A stretch of DNA of 64,000 nucleotides, taken from Planctomycetota bacterium (lineage in GTDB: Bacteria; Planctomycetota; UBA8108; UBA1146). Under the pieces are notes generated by a model. The model did not search any database. It worked only from the letters and a program-made list of their open reading frames with translations, and was not told where the DNA came from. Location of the stretch: contig CBFIET010000056.1 in NCBI GenBank assembly GCA_965661685.1, positions 19,465 through 83,464 of the forward strand, read 5' to 3'. Shown here piece by piece: positions 19,440 to 60,953 of the stretch (within the stretch, counting starts at the first letter, position 1; the number at the start of each line of letters is the position of its first letter). Made by a program: the position numbers and the translations under genes.

Positions 19440-20708
19440 TCAGAACTGCAAGGGTCCGATGCGAGCGTTCTCACCCAACTCGGCGTGAATGCGCAGGAGA
19501 CGATTGTACTTGGCGTTTCGCTCCGATCTGCACGGAGCCCCGGTTTTGATCCAGCCGGCTCCGGTGGCCACGGCGAGGTCGGCGATGAAGTCGTCTTCCG
19601 TCTCCCCGGAGCGATGAGAGATGATGATCCTGAAGCCCGCTTCCGAGGCGACCCGAATCGCCTGGAGGGTCTCGGAGACGGTGCCGATCTGGTTCAACTT
19701 CACCAGCAGAGCATTGGCCGATGCTTCCTCGACGCCCCTGGAGATTCGCTCCGGATTGGTGGCGAAGAGGTCATCGCCGACGAGCCTGATGCCGGCAAGC
19801 CGAGCGGTCATCTTCTTCCAGCCGTCCCAGTCCTCTTCGTCGAGACCATCCTCGATGCTGGTGAAGGGATAGCGATTTCCCAGCTGCTCCCAGTGGTCGA
19901 TCATCTGATCGGAACTGAGAGGCTCCGGATGGGATCCGAGATGGTAACTGCCATCTCGGAACAGTTCACTGGCAGCGACATCGAGTGCAAAACTGAACTG
20001 CTGGTCGTGACCGACGGTGTATCCAGATTGCTCGACCGCCTCGACCAGCTCTTTCAAAACGAGATCATCACTGGCGAAGTTCGGTGCAAATCCACCTTCA
20101 TCTCCGACGGCGGTGACCAGGCCTTTCGACTTCAATCTTTTCTTGAGATGATGATAAACCTCGACCCCGGCCCTCAGAGCTGTGGGAAAGTCAGCGAAAC
20201 CGATCGGTGCCAGCATGAACTCCTGAACATCCACATCGTTGTCGGCATGAGCTCCACCATTGATCACGTTCATCAGAGGGATCGGCAGACGCATCGAGTC
20301 CGGTCCTCCGATGTATCGGTAGAGGGGTAGTCCGCACGATTGAGCAGCCGCGCGGCACACTGCCATCGAAACCGCCAGGATCGCATTGGCCCCCAGCCTC
20401 GACTTGTTGGGGGTGCCGTCCGCTTCGCAGAGACGACGATCGATCTCTTCCTGATCTCGTGCATCGCAACCCGCCATCAGATCGGCGATCTCACCGTTGA
20501 GGTTTGCGATGGCTCGATCGACCCCTTTACCCCCCCAGTCGGCGTCGCCATCCCTCATTTCGAGTGCTTCTGCCTCGCCGGTGGATGCCCCCGAGGGGAC
20601 CATCGCAGTGCCAGTACTGCCGTCCTCGAGCACGCATTGCCCCTCGATGGTGGGAAATCCACGGGAATCCAGCACCATTCGTCCCTGAATCTGTCGGATT
20701 GCTGTCAT
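19440..20708 (-). CDS. eno: Enolase
   Basis: [53 protein letters not shown]; GGAG SD before ATG 20708. Confidence 0.98.
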
Positions 20709-20783
20709 CGGAACTCCTTCGGGAGACCTTACTTTCGGGGCACATTGCTCCCGGGAGACGTTGCCTCTTGCTGCCTGATCGAT

Positions 20784-20813
20784 CACGATGTGGCCATTCA
20801 CGATGTGGCCATG
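20784..20813 (+). repeat. 15-bp tandem duplication in the eno/psd divergent intergenic region
   Basis: CACGATGTGGCCATT CACGATGTGGCCATG. Confidence 0.8.
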
Positions 20814-20873
20814 TGCCGATTGTCCGGCGCAGCGGTAGCATCTGTCAACCGATCGAGAGGCTGACTGACCCAG

Positions 20874-21584
20874 ATGACGACTTCCACGACTCCGTCTGCA
20901 GATTCCGGATTGATGGGAAATCTCCTGACTCGACATGGAACTCCGGTGATCCTGTGGTCGACTGCTCTGGCAGTCGTCTGCGCCTTGGGGATCGGTTTCG
21001 GGATCGAGCAGCCGATCCTGCGGTGGGGACTGATGCACGTGCCCCTGCTGCTATGGTTCTTCGTCCTCTCCTTCTTCAGGAACCCCCAGCGGATCCCCCC
21101 CGCGGGCGAGATGCTGATCTCCCCTGCGGACGGCAAGGTGATCGCCGTGGAAGAGGTCTCCGATGAGGTCTACATCGATGGCCCTGCAGTCCGGATCCAG
21201 ATCTTCCTGTCGGTATTCAACGTTCATGTGAATCGGGTTCCGGCGGAGGGAGTCGTGGAGCATCTACGGCACATCGATGGGGAGTACAGGAATGCCATCG
21301 GTGCCAGTTCCAGGGAGGTCAACGAGCGCCAGGAGATCGGTATTCGGACTCCCCAAGGCGTCCCCCTGCTGATCCGACAGATTGCAGGCCTGATTGCACG
21401 GCGCATCGTCTGTCCCCTGCAGGTCGGAGAAGAGGTAGAGCGAGGATTTGACTTCGGGATGATTCGATTCGGTTCACAGACCGAGATCGTCATCCCTCCC
21501 CGAGATGGCGTTCCATTTCAGGTTTCCGTGGCGGTCGGGCAAAAGGTACAGGGTGGCAAGACGATCCTGGGAGACTGGAAGTAA
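20874..21584 (+). CDS. psd: Phosphatidylserine decarboxylase (short type)
   Basis: [26 protein letters not shown], self-cleavage motif GMIRFGS. Confidence 0.93.
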
Positions 21585-31592: not shown

Positions 31593-34466
31593 ATGAGGAG
31601 CCCGTCGATGCACAGGATGTTCGCCCTCTTCTCGCTGATTCTGTTGCTCAGCGCGTTTCCGTTCGTGACCGGCACCTCGACGGTGTTCAGTCAGGATCCC
31701 TTCGATTTTGATGCGATCGGCTTCGATGATGATGCTCCCGTTACTTTTTCCGCCGAGGAGGTGAAGGGAGCAACCGCAGGTTCCGATGTGGTGGTCAAAC
31801 TGGTCGCCACCATCGAACGTGGGTGGCACATCTTCTCCTTCGACAGCGATCCGGAACTGGGGATTCCCACATCGGTGGTGCTGGTCGGTGCCGGAGATCT
31901 CCAGGCTCTCGAGCCGATTCGCGAGCCGAAACCTCACGAGCGTGAGGATCCTCTCGTCGGTGGTTCCATCCTGGAACATGTCGGTCGTGCCCAGTTCGAG
32001 ATTCCACTCAAGGTTCCTGCCGATGCGAAAGAGGGGCCGAGGAAGATCCTCATCGACATCACTTACCAGGCGTGTGATGCCAAGCAGTGTCTTGCGCCCA
32101 CCGTCGCCACGGTGGAAACCACCGTCACCGTCGGAGCGATGGTAGAGGAGCCACAACAACCGGCGGTGAAGACGCTGGTGGTCAGTACCACTGCAGAAGG
32201 TTCACCGGTGAAGTGGACGGCAACCGGAGTGTCGGAGATCGAAGCGGGGCAGACTGTCGAGGTAGAGATCGTGGCTGCCATAGAACGTGGCTGGCACATC
32301 TACGGTGTCGATCTCGATCCGCAGGTGTCGGGGGATCCCACCACCTTCTCGATTCCGCAGGACCACCCCTTCACCATCGGCAAGGTGGTGGAGGTGACCC
32401 CCGCCAGACCGAGGAACGACCCTGTCGCCGGGGGCCTGATCGTCGAACACATTCGCAAGGCGGTTTTCCGCCTGCCCGTGACGATTCCGGCGACGATCCC
32501 CGAAGGGATCGAGCGACTGCCGGTGACGGTGGCGTACAACGTGTGTGATGCGCAGATCTGTCTTCCTCCCGAACGGGTGACGCTGGAGATTCCACTGCTA
32601 CAGGAATCGCTGACCGATTCAACTCCCACGGCGCACCAGGGAGCGGTCGAGGTCTCGCTGATGCAGGAGGTGGATGATGGAGATCTCCGCATCGAGGCGG
32701 GATTCACCGCCCTCAAGGTGCGGGCAGGGGATCCGATCGGCTTCTCGCTACAGGGATCGGTGCAGGAGGGGAAGAGAATCCCCGCCATCCGCAACGACAC
32801 CCGCGGTGCCGCCGAGCAGGCGGGACTGCTCGGAATCATCGTGCTCTCCTTCGGTGGCGCACTGGTGGCACTGCTGACCCCCTGTGTCTATCCGATGATC
32901 CCCATCACCGTCAGTGTCTTCACCAAGCAGGCCCACGAGAGCCGTTCGAGGGTGCTGTGGCTGGCGGGATTGTTTGGCGGAGGGATCGTCGCATCGTTCA
33001 CGGCACTGGGCTTCCTCCTGTCCGCCTTGCTGGGGGAAGAGGGGGCCAACTTCATGGCCACCAACGGATACGTGAACCTGGCCATCGGTCTCCTCTTCGT
33101 CATCTTCGGATTCAGTCTCTTCGGCTACTACGACATCCAGTTGCCGGCGTGGCTGCGCAACCGGGTCGGTGGTGGCGGAGGTGGTGGAGCCGCCAGCGTG
33201 CTGGTGATGGGACTCGTCTTCAGCGTTACCACCTTCACCTGTGTCGGCCCCATCGTCGCCTTCCTGCTGGCACTGGCAGCGGGGGAGGGCCCCGGCTTTG
33301 CTGCGGTGGGAATGCTCGCATTCAGTACCACCCTGGCGATTCCGTTCGTGATGCTGGCTCTCTTCCCCAAGGCGTTGACCGGTTTACCACGATCCGGTGG
33401 CTGGCTGTCGACGGTGAAGGTGATCCTCGGATTCATCGAACTGCTGGCGGCCTGGAAGTTCTTCAGTGCGGTGGCCACCTACTGGAAGTTCGGAGAAGTG
33501 GTCAACCGCGAGGTGATCATGGCGATCTGGGGTCTGACGCTGGTCGCACTGGCACTGAACCTCGTCGGGAAATTACGATTCCCGCACGATTCCCCGGTCA
33601 CGTCGATCTCCTTCGGCCGTGGATTTCTGCTGGCACTGACGGTGACCAGCGCATTCAGTTGCTTCTATGCCACCACCGGCTGGCGTCTCAACGAGAACCT
33701 GGAGGCGCAGCTGCTGGTCCCGAGTGTCCATGCAAAACAACACCTTCCGTGGACGATTCTGGATCGGGATCATCCCCTCGACTTCCGCGAGCAACTGACC
33801 TTGCTGAAGGAAAAATCGCAGGAGGGGAGCAGTACCCCGAGACCGATCTTTCTCAACTTCACCGGCCACACCTGACAGAACTGCAGGCTGATGGAAAATG
33901 GAATTTTCCTGGAGCCGGAAGTCGAGCAGTTGCTCGGCCAGTTCGAACTACTCGAGATTTACAGTGACGATGCCACCAGTGAGGTGGAGGAGAAGTACCG
34001 TGCTCATCAGATCGAGTACTCCGGCTATTACGCAAACCCCACCTACATCGTGCTGGACAGTGCTGACCATCTGGAAGTGGCGAGAGGATCGTTCACCAAC
34101 AGTTCCACCGAGTTCGCCGACTTCCTGAAGGAGGGACTCCTCGATCGTCCCGCCTTCGAGAGTCGTATCCAGCTCGATGGGCTCACCTTCGAGGAAGAGG
34201 GTCATGAGGTGGAGGTGCTGTCCCGGATCAAACCGTGGTCCTTCGCTGGACAGGTCGATAGTCGCTACCGCGACGAGGAGGTGAAGGAACTCGCCTCTAC
34301 CTTCGAGGCCTCTACCACGTTCCGCGTCGGTGACGAACTGGAGGCGGGGGATTACTTCATCCGTCTCCGTTTCGTCGGTGGACTGTACCGGGGAGACGAG
34401 CGGATTCGCACCTTCTCCCTCCCCCTCAAGTTGAAGCTGCAGGTCGAGGCACCACCGAAGATCTGA
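31593..34466 (+). CDS. dsbD: DsbD-like thiol:disulfide interchange protein, candidate selenoprotein (U761 from TGA 33873-33875)
   Basis: Signal peptide; two N-terminal Ig-like domains (YQACDAKQC, YNVCDAQIC); TM domain LTPCVYPMIP/FTCVGP; Trx domain FLNFTGHT-TGA-QNC-RLMEN continuing in frame to TGA 34466; hairpin follows the TGA. Confidence 0.88.
33886..33916 (+). promoter_or_regulatory. Putative bacterial SECIS element of the dsbD-like gene
   Basis: GGCU-gau-GGAAAAU[GGA]AUUUUCC-ugg-AGCC; apical loop starts with G, 24 nt after the UGA. Confidence 0.7.
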
Positions 34467-36688: not shown

Positions 36689-38395
36689 TCATTCGCTCTC
36701 GCGCGGCCTCTTGGTCACATTCACGTAGTAGAGGTCGGTCGCCACCGCGAAGCGTTCCTGACCCAGCTCGGTCGCCAATGTTTGCCACTCGGTGGTGGGG
36801 GAGAGCTGCTGCCAGCTCGCTTTCTCTCCCGCCAGGAGCTGCCCATCCAAACCGGGGCCGACCAGGATCGGCATGGCGAAACCGGGTACGTCCGTTTTCC
36901 AGCGGTAGGAAACGCTGTTCTTGGCGTCATCGAAAACCAGCTCGAGAAGCGGTAGATTCGCGTGGCGCAGGTACTGATCGAACACCGGTTGGAGGTCCAT
37001 CCCGAATCGTTTGTTGAAGAGCTTCAGGATGTCGTCGGTCTCGATGCTCTGGTACTTGAAGGTATCGTAGACCTCGCGCACCAGCGCCCACCACTTGTCA
37101 TCGTCTCTCAAAACGTTGCGCAGGGTGTGTAGAAACAACGCACCCTTGAAGTACTGATCCCCAGGAGGTTCTCGATGCGTCCCCTTTTGCGTGATGATCG
37201 GTCGCCGATTGGCAACCTTTCCCTGATAACCGTTGATGTACTTCAGGGCGTCTGAGTATCCGAACAGTTTCTCGACGTACATGCATTCGAGGTAGGTGGT
37301 CCATCCCTCGTGAATCCACATGTCGCACACATCGGCAGCGGTAACCGCGTTGCCGAACCACTCATGGCCGCTCTCGTGGATGATGATGAAGTCGAACTTC
37401 ATGCTCACGCCAACGCCGGTCCAGTCGTTGCCGAGGTAGCCGTTGGTGAATCGGTTGCCGTAGGTCACGGCGGATTGGTGCTCCATCCCCGAATAGGGGA
37501 CCTGTATCAGCTTGTAGCCATCCTTGATGAAGGGGTACTCGCCGAAGTAGTGCAGGAACGCCTCCATCATCGGCTTTGCCTGGGCGAATTGCTTCTTGGC
37601 CTTCTCGAGGTCTTCCGGCAAGGCGTAGTAGTCGAGGGTCAACTCACCGAGTTGATCAGAAAAGTGCTCGTAGGCCGCAATGTTGATGGAAACGTTGTAG
37701 GAGTTGATCGGATAATGGACTCGCCACTTCCAGCGTGTGAACCCGTCTCCCAGATCTTCCTTACCGATGAACCGACCATTGGAAACATCGGTCAACCCGT
37801 TGGGGACTGCCACGCTGATGTCCATACTCTCGACCTCGTCGCGCCACTGGTCCTTACAGGGCCACCAGTAACTCGATCCTGGTCCTTCGCACGCCGTGTA
37901 AATCCACGGGCGACCGGCCGGATCCTCATCGAAACTGATACCGCCGAAGCGACTACTGCTCTTCGGAGCACCCGAGTAGTGGAAGTCGATGCTGTAGTTT
38001 TCTCCCGCTTTGAACCCTTCGGGGTTGTCGACGAATACCGCATTGAACTCGCGCTCGAAGGGAAGTTCCCTGGAACCGAGCACGATCTTGTCGACGGCGA
38101 GCTCGCTGTTCAGGTCGAGCTGGATACGATCGTCGTCGGACAGCATCCGAAAACCGATGGTCACCTTGCCACCAATCGTCTTGCTCTCCGGTGACACGCG
38201 GATGTCGAGGTGGTAATAGGTGAGATCGTTGTTGGCGCGATAGCGCCCGTACTCACCACGCAACTGTCGCTTACGCAATTGCGCTTCCGATTCCGGATCC
38301 TGGACCCCGGACAATGGCTCCGATCCAGGGCTGGCAGCGACCCCCATTCCTGGAGATGTACAGAGCAGCATCAGTGCAAGTAGGATCGTGTTCAT
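36689..38395 (-). CDS. M1 family zinc aminopeptidase, secreted
   Basis: Signal peptide; YSGMEHQ exopeptidase motif; HESGHEW and WIHEG (HExxH-x18-E); YFKGA. Confidence 0.93.
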   Translation of the reverse strand: MNTILLALMLLCTSPGMGVAASPGSEPLSGVQDPESEAQLRKRQLRGEYGRYRANNDLTYYHLDIRVSPESKTIGGKVTIGFRMLSDDDRIQLDLNSELAVDKIVLGSRELPFEREFNAVFVDNPEGFKAGENYSIDFHYSGAPKSSSRFGGISFDEDPAGRPWIYTACEGPGSSYWWPCKDQWRDEVESMDISVAVPNGLTDVSNGRFIGKEDLGDGFTRWKWRVHYPINSYNVSINIAAYEHFSDQLGELTLDYYALPEDLEKAKKQFAQAKPMMEAFLHYFGEYPFIKDGYKLIQVPYSGMEHQSAVTYGNRFTNGYLGNDWTGVGVSMKFDFIIIHESGHEWFGNAVTAADVCDMWIHEGWTTYLECMYVEKLFGYSDALKYINGYQGKVANRRPIITQKGTHREPPGDQYFKGALFLHTLRNVLRDDDKWWALVREVYDTFKYQSIETDDILKLFNKRFGMDLQPVFDQYLRHANLPLLELVFDDAKNSVSYRWKTDVPGFAMPILVGPGLDGQLLAGEKASWQQLSPTTEWQTLATELGQERFAVATDLYYVNVTKRPRESE

Positions 38396-38417
38396 CGGTT
38401 TCCCTTCCTCCGAGGGG

Positions 38418-38744
38418 TCATTTTAGTCGAAGTCCGCAGTCGCTGCAGGTCTCCGATTCACCCGCGATGGTTCCGCAGGCGGGACAGGCATCTTCGGCGG
38501 CGTTGTCGTCCGATGCGTCTGCCGTCGATTCCCACTCCCGTGCCGCCTTCTCCTGCAATAAGGCCATTGCCGCCGGTGCTTCTTCCTTCGCGACCGCGAG
38601 GATCAACTTGGTTCCTCAGCCACCCGGTACCGGTGTGACCCGGGGAGAGACCCCGGTAGATTCCAGCAATCGGGCAGCTTCCCGGATGCCGTCGAGAGGT
38701 CCCTGGAGGAGGTCGACCCAGTCATCGTCATGATCTTCGTTCAT
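38418..38744 (-). CDS. 108-aa candidate selenoprotein (U43 from TGA 38618-38616) with C-terminal zinc ribbon
   Basis: ATG overlaps the nfo stop (TGATG); MNEDHDDDWVDLLQGPLDGIREAARLLESTGVSPRVTPVPGG-TGA-GTKLILAVAKEE..CPACGTIAGESETCSDCGLRLK; hairpin follows the TGA. Confidence 0.75.
38584..38602 (-). promoter_or_regulatory. Putative bacterial SECIS element of the small UGA-containing gene
   Basis: mRNA UCCU-CGC[GGUC]GCG-a-AGGA; starts 13 nt after the UGA, apical loop at 20 nt; GGUC core as in the E. coli fdhF SECIS loop. Confidence 0.65.
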
Positions 38745-39661
38745 CAGGAAAGTACCTTCTTCTTGCCCAGTTTGCGCAGCAAGGCGAGGTTCTTGCTGTC
38801 CATGTCATCTTCCTTGGCGGTTTCCAGCATCTTGGGGATGCCACCGAAGCGATCGTCGTTGATCAGCAATTCGAAGCCCTTTTTGCCGATCAGGCCATCT
38901 CCGATGTGCATGTGTCGATCGAGGTGACTGCCGAGATCTCCCTTGCTGTCATTGAGATGCAGTGCGAAGACTCTTGCTGCGCCGATGGTCTTGTCGAGTT
39001 GCTTCATCGTCTGCTGGTATCCCTCGGCATCTCGAAGTTCGTACCCGGCGGCAAACATGTGACAGCTATCGAGGCAGGTTCCGGTTCGATCGGGATCATC
39101 GATGGCAGCCAGAAGGTCACGGAGTTCCTCGAAGGATCGACCCATCGTCGTTCCACCACCGGCGGTGTTCTCGAGGAGCACTCGCGTCGTGACCTGTGGG
39201 ACCCTGCGGAAGCACTCCTGCATTCCAGCAGCGATTCGTTCGATGGCGGCGTCGACTCCGCTTCCCACATGAGCCCCTGGATGCATCACCAGGTAGTCGA
39301 GACCGAGCATCTCGGCGCGCTGCAGTTCATCGGTGAAAGCATCGATGGACTTTTGAAACAGTTCTTCCTTGGGAGATGCGAGATTGATCAGGTAGGAATC
39401 GTGGCTGGTGACCGGATGAGATCCCCACTCCGCCACCGCTTCACGAAAGCGAACAGCTTCCTTCTCCTCGATCGGTCTCTGGATCCAGCGGCTGGCATTC
39501 TTGGTGAAGATTTGCAGCGAGCGTAGCTTCAACTGCATCGCTTCCGCCACCGCCTTCCAGCTGCCGCCGGAGACGGACAGGTGGCTACCCAGGCACAGGC
39601 GATCGGCATCGTCTTCGAAGGTCTTGCGTACAGTTCGCTTTCCCGGTGCAGCGGGACTCAT
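38744..39661 (-). CDS. nfo: Endonuclease IV (AP endonuclease)
   Basis: LGSHLSVSG, QIFTKN, HDSYLINL, MHPGAH, LLENTAG, CLDSCHMFAAG, HLNDSK, DRHMHIGDG, LETAK. Confidence 0.96.
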   Translation of the reverse strand: MSPAAPGKRTVRKTFEDDADRLCLGSHLSVSGGSWKAVAEAMQLKLRSLQIFTKNASRWIQRPIEEKEAVRFREAVAEWGSHPVTSHDSYLINLASPKEELFQKSIDAFTDELQRAEMLGLDYLVMHPGAHVGSGVDAAIERIAAGMQECFRRVPQVTTRVLLENTAGGGTTMGRSFEELRDLLAAIDDPDRTGTCLDSCHMFAAGYELRDAEGYQQTMKQLDKTIGAARVFALHLNDSKGDLGSHLDRHMHIGDGLIGKKGFELLINDDRFGGIPKMLETAKEDDMDSKNLALLRKLGKKKVLS

Positions 39662-39678
39662 CGTGCTCCTCGTTTCCT

Positions 39679-40344
39679 TCAGTCAGCGATCAATTGATCG
39701 AGCTGGTCGACCCACAGGTCAGGTTCCGGTGGAGATGCCGTGCCGTAGCCACCGCGTCGCCCGATGGTGCGAACTCCCGCAGCGATTCCGGTCGAAAAAT
39801 CGACGGCAGAATCTCCCACCATGACAGCATCCCGTGGGGCACATCGTAATCGTTCGAGGATTCCGAGCAATCCGCTCGGATCCGGTTTTGGTATCCCGAC
39901 GTCCTCGGGTGAGACCACCTCTGCCCAGGGACCGTGTAGATCGAGGCGAGGACGCAGCGTTGCGGTGACGCGGCGAGGCTTGTTGGTGAGGATCGCTACC
40001 GGTGTCTGACGATTCCGTAGATGGTCGAGGAGTTCTATCGATCCCGGCAGCCAGCGGATATCCCTGGAGGAATCCTCTGCGATCTGACAGTAGATCGCCA
40101 TGAACTGCTGGTACTGATGCTCGACACTCTCTCCATCCTCGAGGATGTCGGAGAGGATTCTCTGGCACAGTACCCTGGCACCATCTCCCACCGCAGCCCG
40201 CACCGTATCCGTGGAATGTAGCGTGGCGGATCGAGATTCCCGTAGCCGATTGACCGCCTCTGCGATGTCGCCGATGGAGTCAATCAGCGTTCCATCGAGA
40301 TCAAAAACGATGCAGCCGCTCGGGAGGGGGAGTGGATTGTTCAT
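39679..40344 (-). CDS. HAD-superfamily phosphatase (phosphoglycolate phosphatase-like)
   Basis: FDLDGTLIDS, LTNKP, KPDP, MVGDS; ATG 40344 overlaps the upstream stop. Confidence 0.9.
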   Translation of the reverse strand: MNNPLPLPSGCIVFDLDGTLIDSIGDIAEAVNRLRESRSATLHSTDTVRAAVGDGARVLCQRILSDILEDGESVEHQYQQFMAIYCQIAEDSSRDIRWLPGSIELLDHLRNRQTPVAILTNKPRRVTATLRPRLDLHGPWAEVVSPEDVGIPKPDPSGLLGILERLRCAPRDAVMVGDSAVDFSTGIAAGVRTIGRRGGYGTASPPEPDLWVDQLDQLIAD

Positions 40345-42347
40345 ACTGCGGTAGGTGATTGCCCCGAGGGTCGTGTGTACGAATCCTTGTCGAAGTAACG
40401 GTGAAGAAGAGAGATGACGATGATGACCGTCTCCAGCGCATAGAAGATGTAAAGGATGCTCTGAATGCCATCGGTGAAGCCATAACTGTGCAGCCCGACG
40501 CCGAGGAGATTTACACCCCACCAGGAAAAGGCCACGATGATGGCATTGATGAGGACCAGGATGTGGAGACCCTGCTCGCGGATGAACCCACTCATGCGGG
40601 CGTGAAGGATCACCAGTTCTGCGAGACAGATCATCAGGGCGCCATTCTCCTTTGGATCCCATCCCCAGAATCTGCCCCAGGAGTAGTTGGCCCAGATCCC
40701 TCCCAGGATGGTGCCGACGATGCTGAAGAAGAGCCCGAAGCAGATGGTTCCGTAGACCATGCGAGTGATGCTCCGATAGAAATCACCATCGCCTTTGCGG
40801 AATCCGGTCAACTTCCCCAGCAGCCACACGTGCGAGATGGCCGCAGCCAGCAAACCTGCGGAGTATCCAAGGGTTACCGAGGTGACGTGGGTGGAGAGCC
40901 AGAAGTTTGTGTCGAGTACCGCGACCAGGCTCGGCATGGTGTCTCCCGCGGTGACCGCCTCCTTCATCTCGTACTTGATGGAAAGGAAACAGCCGATCGA
41001 TCCGAGCACCGTGGCCATCGTCAGGGCGATCTGGCGTCGATCGAAACGCTCGATGAAGAGCGCTGTCAGGACACAGCAGGCGGTGATGAAGAGGATCGTC
41101 TCGTAAAGGGTCGTGACCGGGGGACGTCCCTGGATGACACAGCGAATCGTCACTCCGACCACCAACAGGATCAGTCCCAGCAGGCTGAAGGTCCAGCTTC
41201 CCCGGCTGGAGAGAGGTGAATCGGGTTTCATCCAGCCGAGACAACTGATCACGAAGGCGAGCATGAAGCAGATCAGTGCCTTGAAGAAGAAGTCCCACCG
41301 ATAAAAGGTGGTTTCCAGTGAGACGTACTCTCCCTGGCCATGGTTGGTTGCCAGTGCCATCAACATCGATTGAACCTGGATCGCCTTTTCCTTGAAAGCA
41401 GGTCGATCGTCACGTAGTGCGACCATCTCTTCGATAGCCTGCAGAGCTTCCGACTGACGTGGCTGGGCATTCATCGTCAGGGCAGATTCGAGAATCCCAT
41501 CGGTGCGGCTCCAGATGGGGGGAGGCGCATCCTTTCCCGTCTGGACCTGCTCGGGAGCGAACCATGCGATTCCCCTGCGAGCGATCTGCAACTGGACCAC
41601 CAGTTGGGAGCGAAGGTCATCGAGAATGGCGATCACCTCGGTCTGACGCTCTTCTGGTAACTCCCGTAACTTCTCTGGATCGGTCAGGTTGGCGAGACGA
41701 TCGACTCCGGCGATCAACGGTGAGAATCCTGGTCGGGGTTCGACCCCGAACACCTCCTGAAACTCGGGTGCCGTGAACAGTGGAAGCTGATTTCGGGCAG
41801 AATCGAACCCGTACAGCAACTCCTCCAGACTGCCGAGATTCTGTGCGAGTTGCACCGTCTGTCTTTCGACGACACTCCAGGTCTTTGAATCCTTGCTGTT
41901 CTGGATACGACTGGCACTGCTGAAGATCTCATCGAGAACCGGGGCCAGCTGATCGTAACTCCAGCGAGAACTTCTCTTTCGCCCCGAGACATCGAGCCCG
42001 ACCGAGGTGAGAACTTCTGCGTTGGAAACCAGAATGCACGGGTAGGTACGGGCAATTTCGGGGTACAGCAAGAAATCGAGGGCCCAGGCGGTTGGCCCCA
42101 GCTTGTCTCCGGCGATGGTCACCGAACGCTTGCCGTTGATCTTCAGCATGGTGAAGCCGGCGAAGGTGCCGAACGGCTTCACTCGACCCCCGTGTTGAAG
42201 GGGCCAGCGAGCGATGCAGTCGAGCGTTTCTGTATCCCAGGAGGCTCGACTCCTGGCAGTGTTTTCTTCGACTGCCGCGTCTTGACCCTCCACCGCAGCA
42301 GGGATGACCAGAAGCAGCATGGCGAGAAGAGAAACAAGACACCTCAT
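40341..42347 (-). CDS. ccsA: System II cytochrome c synthase, CcsA/ResC family, with large periplasmic N-terminal domain
   Basis: STHVTSVTLGY, GGIWANYSWGRFWGWDPKEN (WWD domain), LHAR, GVGLHSYG. Confidence 0.92.
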   Translation of the reverse strand: MRCLVSLLAMLLLVIPAAVEGQDAAVEENTARSRASWDTETLDCIARWPLQHGGRVKPFGTFAGFTMLKINGKRSVTIAGDKLGPTAWALDFLLYPEIARTYPCILVSNAEVLTSVGLDVSGRKRSSRWSYDQLAPVLDEIFSSASRIQNSKDSKTWSVVERQTVQLAQNLGSLEELLYGFDSARNQLPLFTAPEFQEVFGVEPRPGFSPLIAGVDRLANLTDPEKLRELPEERQTEVIAILDDLRSQLVVQLQIARRGIAWFAPEQVQTGKDAPPPIWSRTDGILESALTMNAQPRQSEALQAIEEMVALRDDRPAFKEKAIQVQSMLMALATNHGQGEYVSLETTFYRWDFFFKALICFMLAFVISCLGWMKPDSPLSSRGSWTFSLLGLILLVVGVTIRCVIQGRPPVTTLYETILFITACCVLTALFIERFDRRQIALTMATVLGSIGCFLSIKYEMKEAVTAGDTMPSLVAVLDTNFWLSTHVTSVTLGYSAGLLAAAISHVWLLGKLTGFRKGDGDFYRSITRMVYGTICFGLFFSIVGTILGGIWANYSWGRFWGWDPKENGALMICLAELVILHARMSGFIREQGLHILVLINAIIVAFSWWGVNLLGVGLHSYGFTDGIQSILYIFYALETVIIVISLLHRYFDKDSYTRPSGQSPTAV

Positions 42348-43549
42348 CGTGCACTCTCCTTCACTTTGCTCGTTTGCTTCTTGCTGTAGGCGAGAAACTT
42401 CTGGATGAATGTGATGGCCATACCGACAGCGATGACGATGCATGAATAGAGTGGCCACTGGTCTGATGGATTGCGAACCACCGAGAAGACACTGAACAGT
42501 TCATCCTCCGGGGCGGCATTGGATGGTCCCCAGCTAGACTGGAACAGGATGAGCCCCTGATCTCGTAACGGATCGTTCATCTCGATGCGGATCTTGCGCT
42601 GGTCCCCATCCTTGACCTGGGTCACATCGCTGCGGAATTCCTTCGCCATGGCGATTCCCGGGTGATCGACCTTTTCGAAGTTGTCGAGGCGGATCGAGTA
42701 GGGCATCGAGTAGCGAACTTTCCTCAGTGCTACGGCATAGATCTCGTCGTCGAGGGAGAAGGTCCACGGGAATTTCTCCCCACCCCAGAGAAGTGCAGTT
42801 TTCTTGAGTCCAGCATCGTTGGAGACCTCCACCACCATGCCGGGGAGGTTCTGCTCATTTTCAGGATTGAGTTGCGATTCGAGCAGGGCCCACCCATCCA
42901 CCTCTTCCGAGGAAGGAGTCCATCGAGGTCCGACAGGCTGGGGGGAGCAGTTGATCAGGGGCGTTCTCACCTGCAACTGGAAAGGGGTCTCGGTGGTGGA
43001 ATCGATGGTCAGTGGAGCACCATTCAACCAGCGAGATTGGTGAACACGATGCTCGTGGATCTCGGCCTGATCGGGATTGGTCTTGAAGACGGCCAGTTCC
43101 CAGTGGTGGTGACTGATATATTCCGCCGCCTGCTGAGTTTCCCACAACCTGAGGTAACCCTCATCGGAAGCCTTCAACTTCACAAGGCCCGCCAGCATCA
43201 TGATGGCGATTCCAACATGGATGATGAAGATGCCGATGGTTCTACGGTTGACCCTCAGCCGCAAGACACCGCCGACCAGCAGGTTGATGGTGAAGCAGAC
43301 CATGCACAGAAGACCCCCGGGGAGTGGGACCGGAATCTGCAGTGAGAAGACGTTGAAGGTGTGGATCAATCCCCACGATTCGAAGTATGTTTTCTGGACC
43401 TTGTAGAGGCCGTGTTGCGCCTGCTCAAGTGTTCCGAGAAAGGTCAGCAGGAGCAGCAAGGCCATCAGCACCGCTGCCACCTTCTGGCTTCCCAGAAACT
43501 TCAGGAATCTATCGATCAATCGGGTGAGATCGTCTCTGTCCTTGCTCAC
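42344..43549 (-). CDS. ResB/CcsB-like cytochrome c biogenesis protein
   Basis: FLGTLEQ, three TM with conserved His (IIHVGI), PYSIRLDNF, MNDPLRDQG; coupled to ccsA. Confidence 0.85.
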   Translation of the reverse strand: MSKDRDDLTRLIDRFLKFLGSQKVAAVLMALLLLLTFLGTLEQAQHGLYKVQKTYFESWGLIHTFNVFSLQIPVPLPGGLLCMVCFTINLLVGGVLRLRVNRRTIGIFIIHVGIAIMMLAGLVKLKASDEGYLRLWETQQAAEYISHHHWELAVFKTNPDQAEIHEHRVHQSRWLNGAPLTIDSTTETPFQLQVRTPLINCSPQPVGPRWTPSSEEVDGWALLESQLNPENEQNLPGMVVEVSNDAGLKKTALLWGGEKFPWTFSLDDEIYAVALRKVRYSMPYSIRLDNFEKVDHPGIAMAKEFRSDVTQVKDGDQRKIRIEMNDPLRDQGLILFQSSWGPSNAAPEDELFSVFSVVRNPSDQWPLYSCIVIAVGMAITFIQKFLAYSKKQTSKVKESAR

Positions 43550-46712: not shown

Positions 46713-47534
46713 TCAGAGGCCGAGGCGGGATCCTCCGCTGTAGCAGTTGAGCCCACTGCTTCCGGCAAATCCGCACAGAATCATGCCGGTGGCGCGCGCG
46801 GTCTCGATGGCCAGTGAAGAGGGTGCGCCCACCGCGACGAGGGCACTGAAGCCGGCGACCGCTGCCTTCTGTACCAGTTCGAAACTGGCGCGTCCGCTCA
46901 CGGCACAGACCAGTTCGCTGGCGGGAAGAAGAGTGCGACTGGACAGCCCTCCGATCAACTTGTCGAGGGCGTTGTGGCGTCCCACATCTTCTCGAACCAG
47001 TAACGGCTCTCCATCCAGTTGCCAGGCTCCAGCGGCGTGGACACCACCGGTACTTTCGAAGAGACCCTGGGAGGCGCGGAGTTGATCGGGGAGGGAACTG
47101 AGCCAGTCGGGATCGATCTGCTGCTCACCGCGGGTTTCGGGAATCTTCCCCACCACATCCTGGATGCGGGTCCGTCCGCAGATTCCACAGGCACTGGTGC
47201 CGGCACTACTCCTGGAGTAGGCATCGATGTCGACGACGGCACCTTCCTTGAGGATCACCGTCACGACATTCAGGGGTTCCTCTGCACTTCCATCGGTGCA
47301 ATGAGTGACACCTGCCGGGGACTCGTCAGAAGCGAGGATTCCCTCCGCCACCAGGAATCCGATGGCGAGGTCGAAATCGTTGCCTGGGGTTCTCATGGTG
47401 CTGGTGATCTGTTCGTCGCGACTGGCTCCACCTTCAGTCCAGCGTACCCTCACCTCCAGCGGTTCTTCCACGGCGATCTCGTCGAGACCTCGAGGGGGAC
47501 GACCGGGACGGGTTCGACGTACCGGTAGCCTCAT
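46713..47534 (-). CDS. fdhD: Formate dehydrogenase accessory sulfurtransferase FdhD
   Basis: EEPLEV, MRTPGNDFDLAIGFL, SACGICG, TGGVHAA, EDVGRHNALDK, SGRASFELVQK; start 47534 or 47582. Confidence 0.93.
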   Translation of the reverse strand: MRLPVRRTRPGRPPRGLDEIAVEEPLEVRVRWTEGGASRDEQITSTMRTPGNDFDLAIGFLVAEGILASDESPAGVTHCTDGSAEEPLNVVTVILKEGAVVDIDAYSRSSAGTSACGICGRTRIQDVVGKIPETRGEQQIDPDWLSSLPDQLRASQGLFESTGGVHAAGAWQLDGEPLLVREDVGRHNALDKLIGGLSSRTLLPASELVCAVSGRASFELVQKAAVAGFSALVAVGAPSSLAIETARATGMILCGFAGSSGLNCYSGGSRLGL

Positions 47535-47652
47535 CGATGGCCGACCAGGCGGCGAAGAGGAAGGTGGTTGTGCGTCAGTCATTCCGGTTCCATCCCGTCG
47601 GAGTCGCCAAGCTGACGACTTCCGGCAGGATAACGGTCAGGAGGGCACTCTC

Positions 47653-56561: not shown

Positions 56562-57053
56562 GTGACGATATGGATCATCGACGGTAATAATCTGATCCAC
56601 TCCGACCCCCGGTTACGCCAGAGGATGGAGGAGAGCGGCCTCGAATCCGCTCGAAAACTGCTCGATCATGATCTGGGTCGAGTGAAGAGTTCCGGTGAGA
56701 AAATTCATGTCGTCTACGACGGCGGAGCCTCATCGGGGGATCGCCATGGCGTCCACACTTCCATCGCAAGACGCGGAACCTCGGCGGATGATCAGATCCT
56801 GTCTTTGGCGCGCAAGAAGAGTGCTGATGGCAAGATAAAGATCGTGACGGATGATCACTCCGACATCGGCAGTCGTCTTGGAGGAGCCGGTATCGAATGG
56901 GTGTCCTGTGCCGAGTTCAGGCAGCAGGTGTTGAAGGCCGGTTCCGGCAGGAAGATCCAGGGATCAGAGTCTGACAAGCCTGCTCCTCCCCGGAGCAAGA
57001 AACAGATCGATCACTGGTTGCGCGAGTTCGGGGTCTCGGGAGAAGAAGAGTGA
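56562..57053 (+). CDS. NYN/PIN-domain (YacP-like) putative RNase
   Basis: IIDGNNL, VVYDG, SADDQI, VTDD acidic motifs. Confidence 0.8.
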   Translation: MTIWIIDGNNLIHSDPRLRQRMEESGLESARKLLDHDLGRVKSSGEKIHVVYDGGASSGDRHGVHTSIARRGTSADDQILSLARKKSADGKIKIVTDDHSDIGSRLGGAGIEWVSCAEFRQQVLKAGSGRKIQGSESDKPAPPRSKKQIDHWLREFGVSGEEE

Positions 57054-57655
57054 GCCATCGAGAACGAGAACTGAAACTGGTGCTTGCTGACAAGGGTGAC
57101 CATACCCGCATGTGTGCAGCACTCTCTGGATTCCAGGAAGAGATCGCTCAGGCAAACATTTACTTCGATCAGCAAAGGATCCTGGCAGATCGAGGGATGA
57201 TGTTGCGCCTCCGTGTCGAAGCGACCAGGTCTTTACTCACCTTGAAGATCAAGAAATCCAGCGACCGAGGAGTCTTTGACTCGGAGGAGATCGAGCAAGA
57301 GATCGATCAGACTCTGGCACGAGACATCGAGGATGACCGGCACGATGTAGGTTCACTCGAAGCGACCCCACTGATCGATGCAAGATCGAGGTGCGGCAAT
57401 CCTCTGCTCCACCTGCAGGAGTGGGGAAGGGTTCACAACACCAGGCGGGTGTATCTGGTGGCACCGGACTGGCGAATCGAGGTCGATGAAACCGAGTTTC
57501 CCGGCGCTGTATATCGCTGGGAGATCGAGGTGGAGTGTGAAGAAGAGGTGGCGGTTCGAAAGTACCTCGAAGAGGTCGCCAGCGATGCAGGGGTGAAGTT
57601 ACACGATCAAACCGTCACCAAGGCACAGTTCCTCGATCAGATCGTGCGAAGCTGA
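57050..57655 (+). CDS. CYTH-domain (triphosphate tunnel) protein
   Basis: ERELK, QANIYFD, LRLR, LTLK, EIE, EIEVE. Confidence 0.85.
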   Translation: MSHRERELKLVLADKGDHTRMCAALSGFQEEIAQANIYFDQQRILADRGMMLRLRVEATRSLLTLKIKKSSDRGVFDSEEIEQEIDQTLARDIEDDRHDVGSLEATPLIDARSRCGNPLLHLQEWGRVHNTRRVYLVAPDWRIEVDETEFPGAVYRWEIEVECEEEVAVRKYLEEVASDAGVKLHDQTVTKAQFLDQIVRS

Positions 57656-57660
57656 GAGGT

Positions 57661-58239
57661 TCAGGAGTCGTTTTCTTGCTTCCATGGCCTGTCCTCGACT
57701 CCCATCGCCTGATTCGCTGCTCGCGCCTGAAGAAACAGCAGGTCAGAGAATCGGTTGAGAATCACGATGACATCGACGCCCTCTCCGCAAGTGCGTGAAA
57801 ATTCAACCACCCGTCGCTCTGCTCGCCGACAGGTAGTTCTCGCTCGGTGCAACTGTGCGCTGATGGCGTCGCCCCCCGGTAGGATGAACTGTTTCAGAGG
57901 AGGTAGTTCTCCCTCCCAGGTGTGAATCCAGCCGGTGACGAGATCGACGTGGGCTTGCTCGATTCTGGGCTTGCTGCCACCTTCGAGCCCGCAATCCTGC
58001 TGGGCAAGGTCGGCACCGATGGAGAAGAGCATCGATTGCATCTGTTCCAGCTGGGTAGCGATTGATTCGGGAAGTGGAGAACCGGTGTTCGATCGCATCG
58101 CCAGGCACACTCCCAGTTCGGAGTTCAGCTCATCGACGCAGCCATAGGCTTCAATTCTCGGATGATGCTTGTCGAGACGGGCAGCCCCGAGGATGCCGGT
58201 ATCTCCCTGATCACCGTTGCCGGTCGCGATCGAGTCCAT
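57661..58239 (-). CDS. PduO-type ATP:cob(I)alamin adenosyltransferase
   Basis: IATGNGDQGDT, RIEAYGCVDELNS, FILPGG, RTTCRRAERR, LNRFSDLLF. Confidence 0.92.
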   Translation of the reverse strand: MDSIATGNGDQGDTGILGAARLDKHHPRIEAYGCVDELNSELGVCLAMRSNTGSPLPESIATQLEQMQSMLFSIGADLAQQDCGLEGGSKPRIEQAHVDLVTGWIHTWEGELPPLKQFILPGGDAISAQLHRARTTCRRAERRVVEFSRTCGEGVDVIVILNRFSDLLFLQARAANQAMGVEDRPWKQENDS

Positions 58240-58251
58240 CTCGAGTCCTTC

Positions 58252-59064
58252 CTAGAGAACCACTGCGGCAGCACCGACCAGTTGGTCGTTCGATTCGACC
58301 ACCGAGTGCTCCAGCAAGAAGCCTCGCTGTCGTCCTCGTTCCACCGCATGAGATGTCGCCAGAACCAGTGGAGTTCCACCAGTGATCTGGTGATTCTCCG
58401 TTACCGCGCTTGCCAGGTCTGCAACTGCAGGATCGAGAAGGTACTTGAGGATCGAGGCATCGCCACTGATCCCATCCGATGATGGACCTGATCGATTCTC
58501 CCTGGGCAGCAATGTGCAGGCAGCAACGAGGCTGCACCCTACATCGGTGTTCAGCTGACGTCCCAGCTCCTGTCCGACACCGATGGGATCGAAATTCTCC
58601 GAATGTACCTCGGGAATCTCTATCGGTACGATTCGGCATCCAGGAATCAACACGTGGGCGATCAGGGGAGTGATGCGATGAAGCCCGGGCAGGGAATCCT
58701 CATCTTCGCCCTCGGGGATGATGTCCAGATCGCCAGGCCAGAAGGAGGCAATCCTGGCGGCCAGACGTTCATCGATGGGGGAGTCCCCGAGACTGGTGGA
58801 GAGAACACCGACAGCACGAATCCGCGGCACATCGATGGCACTGCTGCTGACGAGGACCAGGGTTCTGGGGCGAGCTCTGAGCACCACGGTATGCAGCGTT
58901 CGAGCCAGCAGTCTCACTCCATCGAGGCATTCGGTTCCAGGGACGACAGCGGTGCAGATCCCCTGGGGGATCACCTCGGGAATCGTCCAGCCCGAGACGA
59001 GTGCTTCAGTAGCTCGAGCTACTTCCTCACGGTCACGGGTAGGATCGATCAGTGGACCGCTCAA
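58252..59064 (-). CDS. Degenerate MEMO1/AmmeMemoRadiSam protein B-like protein
   Basis: [18 protein letters not shown], overall length and order match the MEMO fold; canonical His motifs are missing. Confidence 0.5.
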
Positions 59065-60233
59065 ATCGTCTCTCCAGAAGTTGAAGTAGAGGTTGGAACC
59101 GGTCGACTCGCCAGTCGCTGGTAGCCGGCGTTGCGCAGAGCCGGAATGAATCCAGCTTCCTCGATGGTATTTCTCAGCAGGTTTTCGGTAGCGGTATGGT
59201 TGGCTCCGGCAACGGAGATGACATTTTCTTCCATCATCACGGAACCGAGATCATTGGCCCCGCGCCGAAGACCCTCTCGGCCTTCATCGAGACCCACCGT
59301 CAGCCACGAAACCTGAAGATTCTTGATGTTGTCGAGGTAAATTCGGGAAACTGCAAGCCACCGTGCGTACTCCCTGGCGGAGACGCGCTCGGTGATCTTC
59401 CGGCCCAGCGGTGTGTTGTCGGGCTGGAAGGTCCAGGGGATGAAGGAGATGAATCCCTCCGTATCATCCTGCACCTCACGAACACGCTGCAGGTGCTCCG
59501 CTCTCATCCAATCCGCCTCACCCAGCCCGATCATCATCGTGGCGGTTGTCGGGATTCCCAGCCGGTGAGCGGTAGCACTGATGTCGAGCCAGTCATCGGC
59601 TCCACAGGAAGAGCGCCTTCTCTTGCGGATGACGTCGACGAGAATTTCTCCGCCGCCGCCAGGGATCGAATCGAGCCCCGCTTCCTTCAACTGGACGAGT
59701 AGAGATTCGTGATCGATTCCGGTGACGCCGGAGAGCGCGTGAATCTCGGTGGGAGAGAAACAGTGCAGGTAGAAATCAGGATGTCGATCTTTGATGCTCC
59801 TGAGCATATCGGTGTACCAGGAGAGTGGCAGATCAGGGTGCAGGCCTCCCTGCATCAGGGTTCCACTACCACCATTTGCAATCGTCTCCTCGACCTTGTC
59901 GTGGATCTCCTCGAGGCTCAGAAGATAGCCCTCTGCATCTCCAGGTTTCCGGTAAAAAGCACAGAAGGAACAGACTGAGGTGCAGATGTTGCTGTAGTTG
60001 ATATTTCGATCGACGACGTAGGTGACCGAAGAGTCGGGGTGGAACCTGGCGCGGATCGCATCCGCGGTGGCGAAAAGGGCGTCCTCCTCGGCGTGGAGGG
60101 CGAGGGCCAGGGCGTCCGCTGTCGAGATACGAATTCCGTCGCGAGCTCGATCCAGAATCTGCTGGCACTCCGATGCGGAATTGCAGGAGGGGATTACCCT
60201 CGCCTCGTCTGAATTATGAGACTCTTCGCTCAC
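59061..60233 (-). CDS. mqnC: Cyclic dehypoxanthinyl futalosine synthase (CofH-like radical SAM)
   Basis: [62 protein letters not shown]. Confidence 0.88.
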
Positions 60234-60317
60234 GGTGATCCCCTTCTTTCCGGGTTATCAGGGGGGTTCCCTGTCCGGATCGTAAGGTCCGTACCGGTGT
60301 CATGCCACCGGTCCCGA

Positions 60318-60902
60318 TCACATCCGGGGAGGATTGATCCCCGTCTGCCCCTGATACTTCCCTCCACGATCACCATAGGAGGTTTCGCACTCCTCATCGC
60401 TCTCGAAGAAGAGTACCTGCGCCAGGCCCTCCTTGGCGTACACCCTTGCCGGAAGGGGAGTGGTGTTGGAAATCTCCAGGGTCACGTGTCCCTCCCATTC
60501 TGGTTCGAAGGGCGTGACATTTACGATGATCCCGCAGCGCGCATAGGTGGACTTGCCGAGGCACACGGTGATGACATTTCTTGGAATCCGGAAGTACTCG
60601 ACACTCCTTGCCAGTGCGAAGGAGTTGGGCGGGATGATGCAGCAGTCGGTGGTGATGTCGACAAAGGAGCGGTCGTCAAACGACTTCGGATCGACTACCG
60701 AGCCGTGCACATTGGTGAAGACCTTGAACTCATTGGAGACGCGGAGGTCGTAGCCGTAGGAGGAGATTCCGTATGAAATCACCCTCTGGGACTGACCATT
60801 CTCATCGGTTTTCTCTCGCACCTGGGTGGGAGAGAACGGTTCGATCATGCCATGCTCGACAGCCATTCTTCGAATCCAGCGATCAGCCTTTACTGCCACC
60901 AC
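60318..60902 (-). CDS. dcd: dCTP deaminase
   Basis: [48 protein letters not shown]. Confidence 0.95.
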
Positions 60903-60953
60903 ACACCTCCTCTGTTTCTCTCTTCTTGAATAAGTAAACCAACTGCGACTCGT

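Follow-up and report, generated by a model that had tools for sequence, protein, structure and literature searches.

The hypothetical protein DG is one of nine selenoprotein families that were predicted by deep-Sep in Desulfosediminicola in 2025, and it was predicted in both Desulfosediminicola ganghwensis and D. flagellatus (PMC12013277). The published DG sequence reads ...GCAKGUGGPDLQLVVR...CPACN...CPECGLRFG, in which U is selenocysteine (Sec) (PMC12013277), and a review of 2026 lists the family with the motif GUxG (PMC13188914). Here we describe a gene from a stretch of 64,000 nucleotides of a Planctomycetota bacterium (contig CBFIET010000056.1, positions 19,465 to 83,464; "the window" below means this whole stretch) that very probably encodes one Sec-containing zinc-ribbon protein of 108 residues. 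Such proteins would be found in deep-sea Planctomycetota, with the UGA at codon 43 recoded via a hairpin. The analysis established the structure of the gene, the Sec/Cys relationship among its homologues, its homology to DG, its modelled fold class and its coupling to the endonuclease IV gene nfo. The parts of the gene are as follows.

38418 to 38744, minus strand: coding sequence of the candidate selenoprotein, from an ATG through the putative Sec-TGA to the stop TGA at 38420-38418, with the frame intact in 14 distinct orthologues.
38616 to 38618, minus strand: putative Sec-TGA, residue 43, in the motif VPGG-U-GTK, with TGA in 13 orthologues and TGT in one (L001).
38584 to 38602, minus strand: hairpin UCCUCGC [GGUC] GCG-a-AGGA resembling a selenocysteine insertion sequence (SECIS), with its loop at 38595-38592 and a bulged A at 38588.
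38550 to 38720, minus strand: N-terminal beta-alpha-beta-beta-alpha domain, residues ~9-65, as seen in an AlphaFold2 model of the orthologue P0001.
38433 to 38486, minus strand: C-terminal Cys4 zinc ribbon CPACG-x9-CSDCG, matched by Pfam Zn_ribbon_3 with an E-value of 1.5e-4, which is below the cut-off of that model.

The gene lies on the minus strand (38744-38418), and gene callers cut it in two at an in-frame TGA. Its start codon (ATG, 38744-38742) shares bases with the stop codon of nfo in the sequence TGATG. From there the frame runs through 42 sense codons to the TGA at 38618-38616, and then through 65 codons ending ...CPACGTIAGESETCSDCGLRLK to the final stop. Translation of the minus strand from 38744 to 38418 gives MNEDHDDDWVDLLQGPLDGIREAARLLESTGVSPRVTPVPGG before the in-frame TGA and GTKLILAVAKEEAPAAMALLQEKAAREWESTADASDDNAAEDACPACGTIAGESETCSDCGLRLK between it and the stop. 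The list of open reading frames (ORFs) holds two pieces only, one of 42 residues (38616..38744) and one of 62 residues that begins at a TTG (38418..38606). The original prediction, which had been made from the sequence alone, described the start within TGATG, the 42 and 65 codons around the TGA, the short TTG-started piece and a hairpin 13 nt downstream of the TGA, and all of these statements were correct. In the source genome TGA is an ordinary stop codon, since it terminates both nfo and the selenoprotein gene, and any reading of codon 43 would therefore be a site-specific recoding event. The predicted protein has no signal peptide, and its N-terminus and linker are acidic.

A word-indexed protein search, in which the U of the query was replaced by C, returned three relatives. 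One of them, P0001, is a full-length protein of 110 residues with Cys in the column of the TGA (...AVPGGCGTKLILAVAKE... around this column), and the other two are fragments of 62 residues. On the contigs of both fragments the N-terminal 42-44 codons are present in frame and are followed by TGA, while the contig of P0001 (L001) has TGT in this column. Further orthologues were collected by a scan in which each GTDB species was represented by one genome, a metagenome scan, an exhaustive HMMER search of 1.8 billion representatives and two look-ups of fragment proteins. Together, these searches gave 14 distinct orthologous genes, 13 of which carry the TGA in frame and one of which (L001) carries TGT. 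The 13 TGA orthologues come from at least seven GTDB species-level metagenome-assembled genomes (MAGs) and from metagenome contigs; the sources of the orthologues are Planctomycetota MAGs (the UBA1146 group, "uncultured Planctomycetia" and others) and marine metagenomes. The same nfo-selenoprotein locus, with 68% protein identity to that of the window, was also seen in L006 (QNYK01000060.1), which is titled "Bacillota bacterium MAG 7" and is likely to be a mis-binned contig or a mislabelled MAG.

Both halves of the gene evolve as coding sequence under purifying selection. The ratio of non-synonymous to synonymous substitution rates (dN/dS) is 0.33-0.54 upstream of the TGA and 0.16-0.56 downstream, and indels upstream of the TGA are in-frame only. 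These data bear on the idea that the TGA marks a pseudogene, or an assembly or sequencing artefact, in which a Cys-type gene has suffered a nonsense mutation. A single base separates TGT from TGA, and the TGT-containing L001 (encoding P0001) and the TGA-containing L010 differ by that base and four others (5 of 333 nt). Against this stands the recurrence of the same TGA across species, samples and assemblers that are independent of one another, in 13 distinct sequences, together with purifying selection on both halves and the lack of frameshifts. A pseudogene or artefact is effectively refuted by this conservation, and we regard it as scarcely credible.

The gene callers' own reading of the locus is that the TGA is a true stop between two small genes, one for a 42-residue acidic peptide coupled to nfo and the other for a 62-residue, TTG-started zinc-ribbon protein. 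Database entries agree with it, as P0002, P0003, P0004, P0005, P0008 and P0026 are all fragments that stop or start at the TGA, and the last residues of the same-clade fragments P0004 and P0026 are exactly ...PGG. The two-gene arrangement would also be in keeping with the failure to see Sec machinery in the window and the fetched loci. However, 8 of the 14 orthologues have CTG in place of the TTG that ORF callers use for the C-terminal piece, which leaves that half without a conserved start of its own. The two pieces always share one frame with exactly one TGA between them, and proteins that are continuous and have Cys at this place are found in one orthologue and in 25 of 36 distant homologues.

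Structure prediction argues in the same direction. AlphaFold2 was run on the Cys orthologue P0001 with an alignment of 37 sequences, and the model (predicted local distance difference test score, pLDDT, 86) has a strand at residues 10-16, a helix at 18-30, a strand at 36-40, the loop PGGCGT, a strand at 47-53 and a helix at 54-80, followed by a linker and the ribbon, which are less confident. In this model the TGA falls in a tight loop that joins strands 2 and 3 within one small domain, and a split there would cut a beta-hairpin within a single fold, which is incompatible with two independent genes. Two separate genes are thus very unlikely, and one continuous selenoprotein gene remains our reading of the locus.

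The HMMER search of 1.8 billion representatives returned 52 proteins, many of which are continuous proteins of 115-200 residues. The distant homologues have in common the alpha/beta domain, a Cys-containing loop and a C-terminal CPACG...C-x-x-CGL zinc ribbon, the CPAC, C and CG of which are invariant in 40 homologues. Their loop is typically C-x3/4-C, as in PGCKAGECGTT or SCGKGCCGPE, and many of them possess an extra zinc ribbon at the N-terminus. The column aligned with the TGA is Cys in 25 of the 36 distant full-length homologues, and the N-terminal 42 codons are conserved among the orthologues; a Trp, Arg or Gly in this column, or a loss of conservation in the N-terminal codons, had been named beforehand as outcomes that would count against Sec. 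The finding of both Cys homologues and homologues with a TGA plus hairpin makes the original proposal of a single 108-codon gene with UGA read as Sec very probable.

Eleven of the 36 distant homologues have no Cys at the Sec column (P0009, P0019, P0020, P0027, P0029, P0031, P0034, P0039, P0043, P0048 and P0054). In ten of them the loop between strands 2 and 3 is without any Cys, and P0039 has one Cys two residues off. All 11 retain the zinc ribbon, and the chemistry of the loop seems to be dispensable for part of the superfamily.

Comparison with curated models linked the window protein to a known selenoprotein family. NCBIfam NF049953, "zinc ribbon-containing (seleno)protein DG", matches it with an E-value of 1.3e-14 over model positions 55-171 of 172, and the same model matches every homologue tested. 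Bit scores against a curated cut-off of 130 are 54.5 for the window protein, 63.2 for P0001 and 215 for P0013, which makes P0013 a true member of NF049953. In a BLASTP alignment G42-U43-G44 pairs with the G-U-G of D. ganghwensis DG and the two ribbons align as well. The Sec position is therefore homologous to the previously predicted Sec position of DG (PMC12013277), and the window protein is best described, from these alignments, as a clear though sub-threshold homologue of DG, short, divergent and specific to Planctomycetota, and not as a wholly new family. The original suggestion of a possible new family was in this respect overstated. The motif of the Sec loop in the window protein is GUGT, which is strictly not GUxG.

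The AlphaFold2 model also bears on the description of the fold. As had been proposed, two strands flank the Gly-rich loop (PGG-U-GT) that holds the putative Sec, which lies outside any thioredoxin CxxC motif. The further description of the domain as DUF2007/PII-like holds in part only. Foldseek searches of the PDB gave nothing below an E-value of 0.03, with a ring motif of PrgK as the best match; top matches included the ACT domains of aspartate kinase and the PII-like PstA, GlnK and SbtB, and the ACT/PII-like matches were weak (E-values of 0.05-0.2, query TM-scores of 0.3-0.45), which makes them a matter of fold class. For DUF2007, Pfam PF09413 had no match to the window protein at E <= 10 and none at E <= 0.01 to 40 homologues, and the sole trace was NF040569, "DUF2007-related", with an E-value of 0.086 for one distant homologue. 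Pfam searches with the window protein and its homologues found zinc-ribbon models only, and a sequence profile search of the PDB found zinc-ribbon fragments only. The order of secondary-structure elements, beta-alpha-beta-beta-alpha, is common to PII-like, ACT and DUF2007 domains and the window protein, and on the modelled structure "PII/DUF2007-like" may serve as a loose description at most.

In Escherichia coli the SECIS of fdhF is a SelB-binding hairpin within the coding sequence, with a bulged U on the 5' side of its stem and a loop that lies 18 nt after the UGA. The hairpin of the window (UCCUCGC/GGUC/GCG-A-AGGA) resembles it in several ways: it lies within the coding sequence, immediately 3' of the UGA, it has a GGUC tetraloop, and a single nucleotide is bulged from the stem below the loop. 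It differs in that an A is bulged out on the 3' side, three pairs beneath the loop, instead of a U on the 5' side, in that it starts 13 nt and its loop starts 20 nt, not 18 nt, after the UGA, and in that the stem is shorter (7 bp) and has no extended lower helix.

The consensus for bacterial SECIS elements (bSECIS) calls for an apical loop of 3-9 nt whose first two positions contain a G, an upper stem of 4-16 bp, a distance of 16-37 nt from the UGA to the loop and a minimum free energy of -7.5 kcal/mol or lower (PMC13188914). The hairpin agrees with this consensus on all four points, with its GGUC loop, 7 bp and one bulged A, 20 nt and -8.4 kcal/mol, in agreement with the original view of its loop and spacing; the consensus is permissive. 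The energy of the hairpin alone is not significant (z = -1.7), and the consensus criteria and the constraint on synonymous sites were relied on instead. Among the 14 orthologues there are 35 degenerate codon columns in which the amino acid is invariant, and 30 of these show synonymous variation. Four of the five columns that do not vary are consecutive, and these codons, CTC GCG GTC GCG, correspond exactly to the upper stem and loop. They form the only run of codons without synonymous variation, for which the chance expectation is 961/324632 = 0.003. The hairpin is thus a probable, though not proven, SECIS as judged from these patterns.

Decoding of UGA as Sec in this lineage is supported by another gene of the window. 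When all ORF pairs of the window that are split by a TGA were screened, about 40 candidates emerged, and only one pair had a recognisable motif:

31593 to 34466, plus strand: DsbD-like gene, a second candidate selenoprotein, with an in-frame TGA at 33873-33875 in FLNFTGHT-U-QNC.

In this gene a 760-residue ORF (31593-33875, plus strand) would read through the TGA into an ORF of 191 codons. The TGA, within FLNFTGHT-U-QNC-RLMENG, is at the UxxC position of a C-terminal thioredoxin-like domain, and a match to Thioredoxin_7 spans it. Both the TGA and its two flanks are kept in L004, L009 and L010, and the stable hairpin 3' of the TGA (-19.4 kcal/mol, z = -2.8) was equalled by none of 200 shuffles. 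"Thiol:disulfide interchange protein, UxxC" is an established type of predicted selenoprotein, and the DsbD-like gene is probably a second selenoprotein that gene callers have split. The second conserved TGA supports Sec decoding in the lineage, as two independent conserved TGAs at Cys-equivalent sites are hard to explain without it. A full set of Sec genes has been documented for some Planctomycetes (PMC4807772).

Two other genes of the window were observed. First, an FdhD/NarQ-family gene (46713-47582, minus strand), which encodes a sulfur-transfer chaperone for formate dehydrogenase, has no formate dehydrogenase gene beside it; this hints at a formate dehydrogenase, an enzyme that is often a selenoprotein, in another part of the genome. 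Second, the enolase ORF (19440-21038, minus strand) is listed with 532 residues and its enolase domains begin at residue 114. Its true start is probably internal, the alternative being an unusual N-terminal extension, and the ORF of 153 residues that follows its TGA in the same frame has no recognisable motif.

A number of observations weigh against reading codon 43 as Sec and against the wider picture drawn around it. First, the thermodynamics of the hairpin are weak. In contexts of 54-66 nt it folds no better than shuffles (z = -0.2 to +1.1), and a competing helix pairs GAGGA (38617-38613) with UCCUC (38602-38598). This helix takes up two bases of the UGA, and in several orthologues the minimum-energy folds of these contexts favour it. 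The hairpin is invariant in 13 of the 14 sequences, with no covariation and hence no proof from compensatory changes. Its sole variant, in L012 (ATT...AAA GAA), keeps the upper stem and has a register-shifted lower stem, UUCU/AGAA, that is weaker (-3.9 kcal/mol). Rfam searches found no SECIS or relevant family, either in the whole window at the gathering threshold or in 33.5-39 kb at E <= 10. Second, neither the 64-kb window nor the fetched loci showed any tRNA gene, and hence no tRNA-Sec was seen. Among the 56 ORFs of the window with 100 or more residues, no Pfam match to SelA, SelB or SelD was found in the approximately 47 that were scanned, which were all except six ORFs at 57050-63848 and three short ORFs overlapping annotated genes. 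Third, the window protein is under the NF049953 cut-off (54.5 versus 130 bits), and the neighbours of the distant homologues (CHAT, M23 peptidase and DsrE) are unrelated to those in the window, which means that the neighbourhood is not conserved. Finally, the incorporation of selenium is a computational prediction both here and for the DG family (PMC12013277), and the function proposed below is putative.

Some of the same observations would suit a read-through of the UGA without Sec, in which a near-cognate tRNA (Trp or Cys) or another form of recoding gives a selenium-free protein of full length. The sel genes and tRNA-Sec were not observed in the window and fetched loci, the hairpin is thermodynamically weak, and structure after a stop codon can stimulate generic read-through. 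This explanation is nevertheless improbable. Homologues have Cys in this column, and for DG a Sec is predicted at the homologous site; the apical loop that begins with G and the spacing are typical of SelB-dependent elements; and a second TGA at a thioredoxin-fold UxxC in the same genome and its relatives is a hallmark of Sec use. Furthermore, the stable retention of TGA over a sense codon across species argues for a specific benefit. Incorporation of Sec at codon 43 is, on this evidence, the reading that we carry forward.

The gene lies downstream of nfo, and the minus-strand order is ResB-like and CcsA-like genes (cytochrome c biogenesis), a HAD hydrolase, nfo, the selenoprotein gene and a secreted M1 peptidase. 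Two of these neighbours are as follows.

38744 to 39661, minus strand: nfo (deoxyribonuclease IV), matched by TIGR00587 with 272 bits against a cut-off of 130 and by Pfam AP_endonuc_2.
39679 to 40344, minus strand: HAD hydrolase resembling phosphoglycolate phosphatase, matched by Pfam HAD_2 and, below all of their cut-offs, by NCBIfam phosphoglycolate phosphatase models.

The stop codon of the CcsA-like gene overlaps the ATG of the HAD hydrolase (ATGA), as that of nfo overlaps the start of the selenoprotein gene (TGATG). Wherever the upstream end could be read, the orthologues also start at or within the upstream stop, as TGATG, ATGA or GTGA. The upstream gene is AP_endonuc_2 by Pfam in L002, L003 and L011, and in L001 and L012 an upstream ORF terminates at the selenoprotein start. 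The region from 36689 to 42458 (minus strand) consists of tightly packed or overlapping genes from the CcsA-like gene to the M1 peptidase, which has a signal peptide, and it looks like one operon that mixes cytochrome c biogenesis, DNA repair and a peptidase.

The proposed path from gene to protein is as follows. The selenoprotein would be translated from the nfo mRNA, because its start overlaps the nfo stop. SelB and tRNA-Sec would insert Sec at the UGA of codon 43, and the hairpin, which starts 13 nt downstream, would guide them. The product would be a cytoplasmic protein. It would consist of a small beta-alpha-beta-beta-alpha domain, whose loop joining strands 2 and 3 exposes one selenol, and then of a long helix, an acidic linker and the Cys4 zinc ribbon.

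The conserved Cys/Sec loop and the general chemistry of Sec suggest two roles for this selenol. It may, as a tentative proposal, act as a redox-active nucleophile, with a selenenylsulfide formed to either a low-molecular-weight thiol or a partner protein. It could also be a ligand for soft metals, which is possible on the same grounds and less likely. As the loop contains no partner Cys, redox cycling would depend on dimerisation or on an external thiol; the equivalent loop of most relatives carries a C-x3/4-C pair. The operon, as the sole basis for this idea, suggests a role tied to the repair of oxidative DNA damage, with Nfo on one side and phosphoglycolate metabolism on the other. An unlikely extension of this idea is that the nfo-coupled, single-selenol form is a distinct accessory of endonuclease IV in deep-sea Planctomycetota. 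The protein would then act as a selenium-dependent redox switch or as a zinc/metal chaperone that guards or loads the tri-zinc active site of Nfo, protecting or loading the enzyme during the repair of oxidative DNA damage. If true, this would tie selenium to bacterial DNA repair.

The gene is systematically mis-annotated, as the entries of this clade in databases are fragments of 43-62 residues, including one NCBI genome call, and a corrected annotation would add one more selenoprotein to Planctomycetota. The DG family would be extended to a second phylum and to a minimal architecture with one ribbon. With Sec as the only redox- or metal-active residue of the loop, the protein would offer a clean system for asking what the loop does. 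Together with the DsbD-like Sec gene, it would mark an uncultured lineage of the deep ocean as a user of Sec, which matters for estimating how selenium is used in the sea. Neither the recoding mechanism nor the protein superfamily is new, and no new class of biology is involved.

Compared to the short Cys-type homologues P0010, P0012 and P0040, which are unannotated metagenome proteins, the window protein has the same length and architecture. These homologues are of ~115 residues and lack an N-terminal ribbon, and some of them have a single loop Cys in the context ...CG[TP]K followed by a hydrophobic strand; P0010 reads PSCGTKFQLAVA. They differ from the window protein in having Cys and not Sec, in their identity of 35-45% and in their gene neighbourhoods.

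Compared to DG, the window protein shows several points of likeness. First, the two share a central alpha/beta domain and a C-terminal CPAC...C-x-x-CGL ribbon. Second, the Sec is predicted in the same loop and the same G-U-G context, in an alignment that is residue for residue, with both families being computational predictions. The differences are of four kinds. First, DG has an N-terminal zinc ribbon (CPxC-x(10-12)-CxxC) and ~60 further residues, which are missing from the window protein; this begins 8 residues before strand 1. Second, the loop is C-A-K-G-U in DG and V-P-G-G-U in the window protein; a partner Cys four residues upstream of Sec (C-x3-U) is absent, with VPGGU in all 14 orthologues, none of which has a Cys outside the ribbon other than at the Sec/Cys position. 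Third, DG belongs to Desulfobacterota and the window protein to Planctomycetota. Fourth, the window protein is translationally coupled to nfo, a context unseen for the distant homologues examined. What is new is therefore an unannotated, sub-threshold variant of DG with a single ribbon and a single selenol, in a different phylum and in a new gene context.

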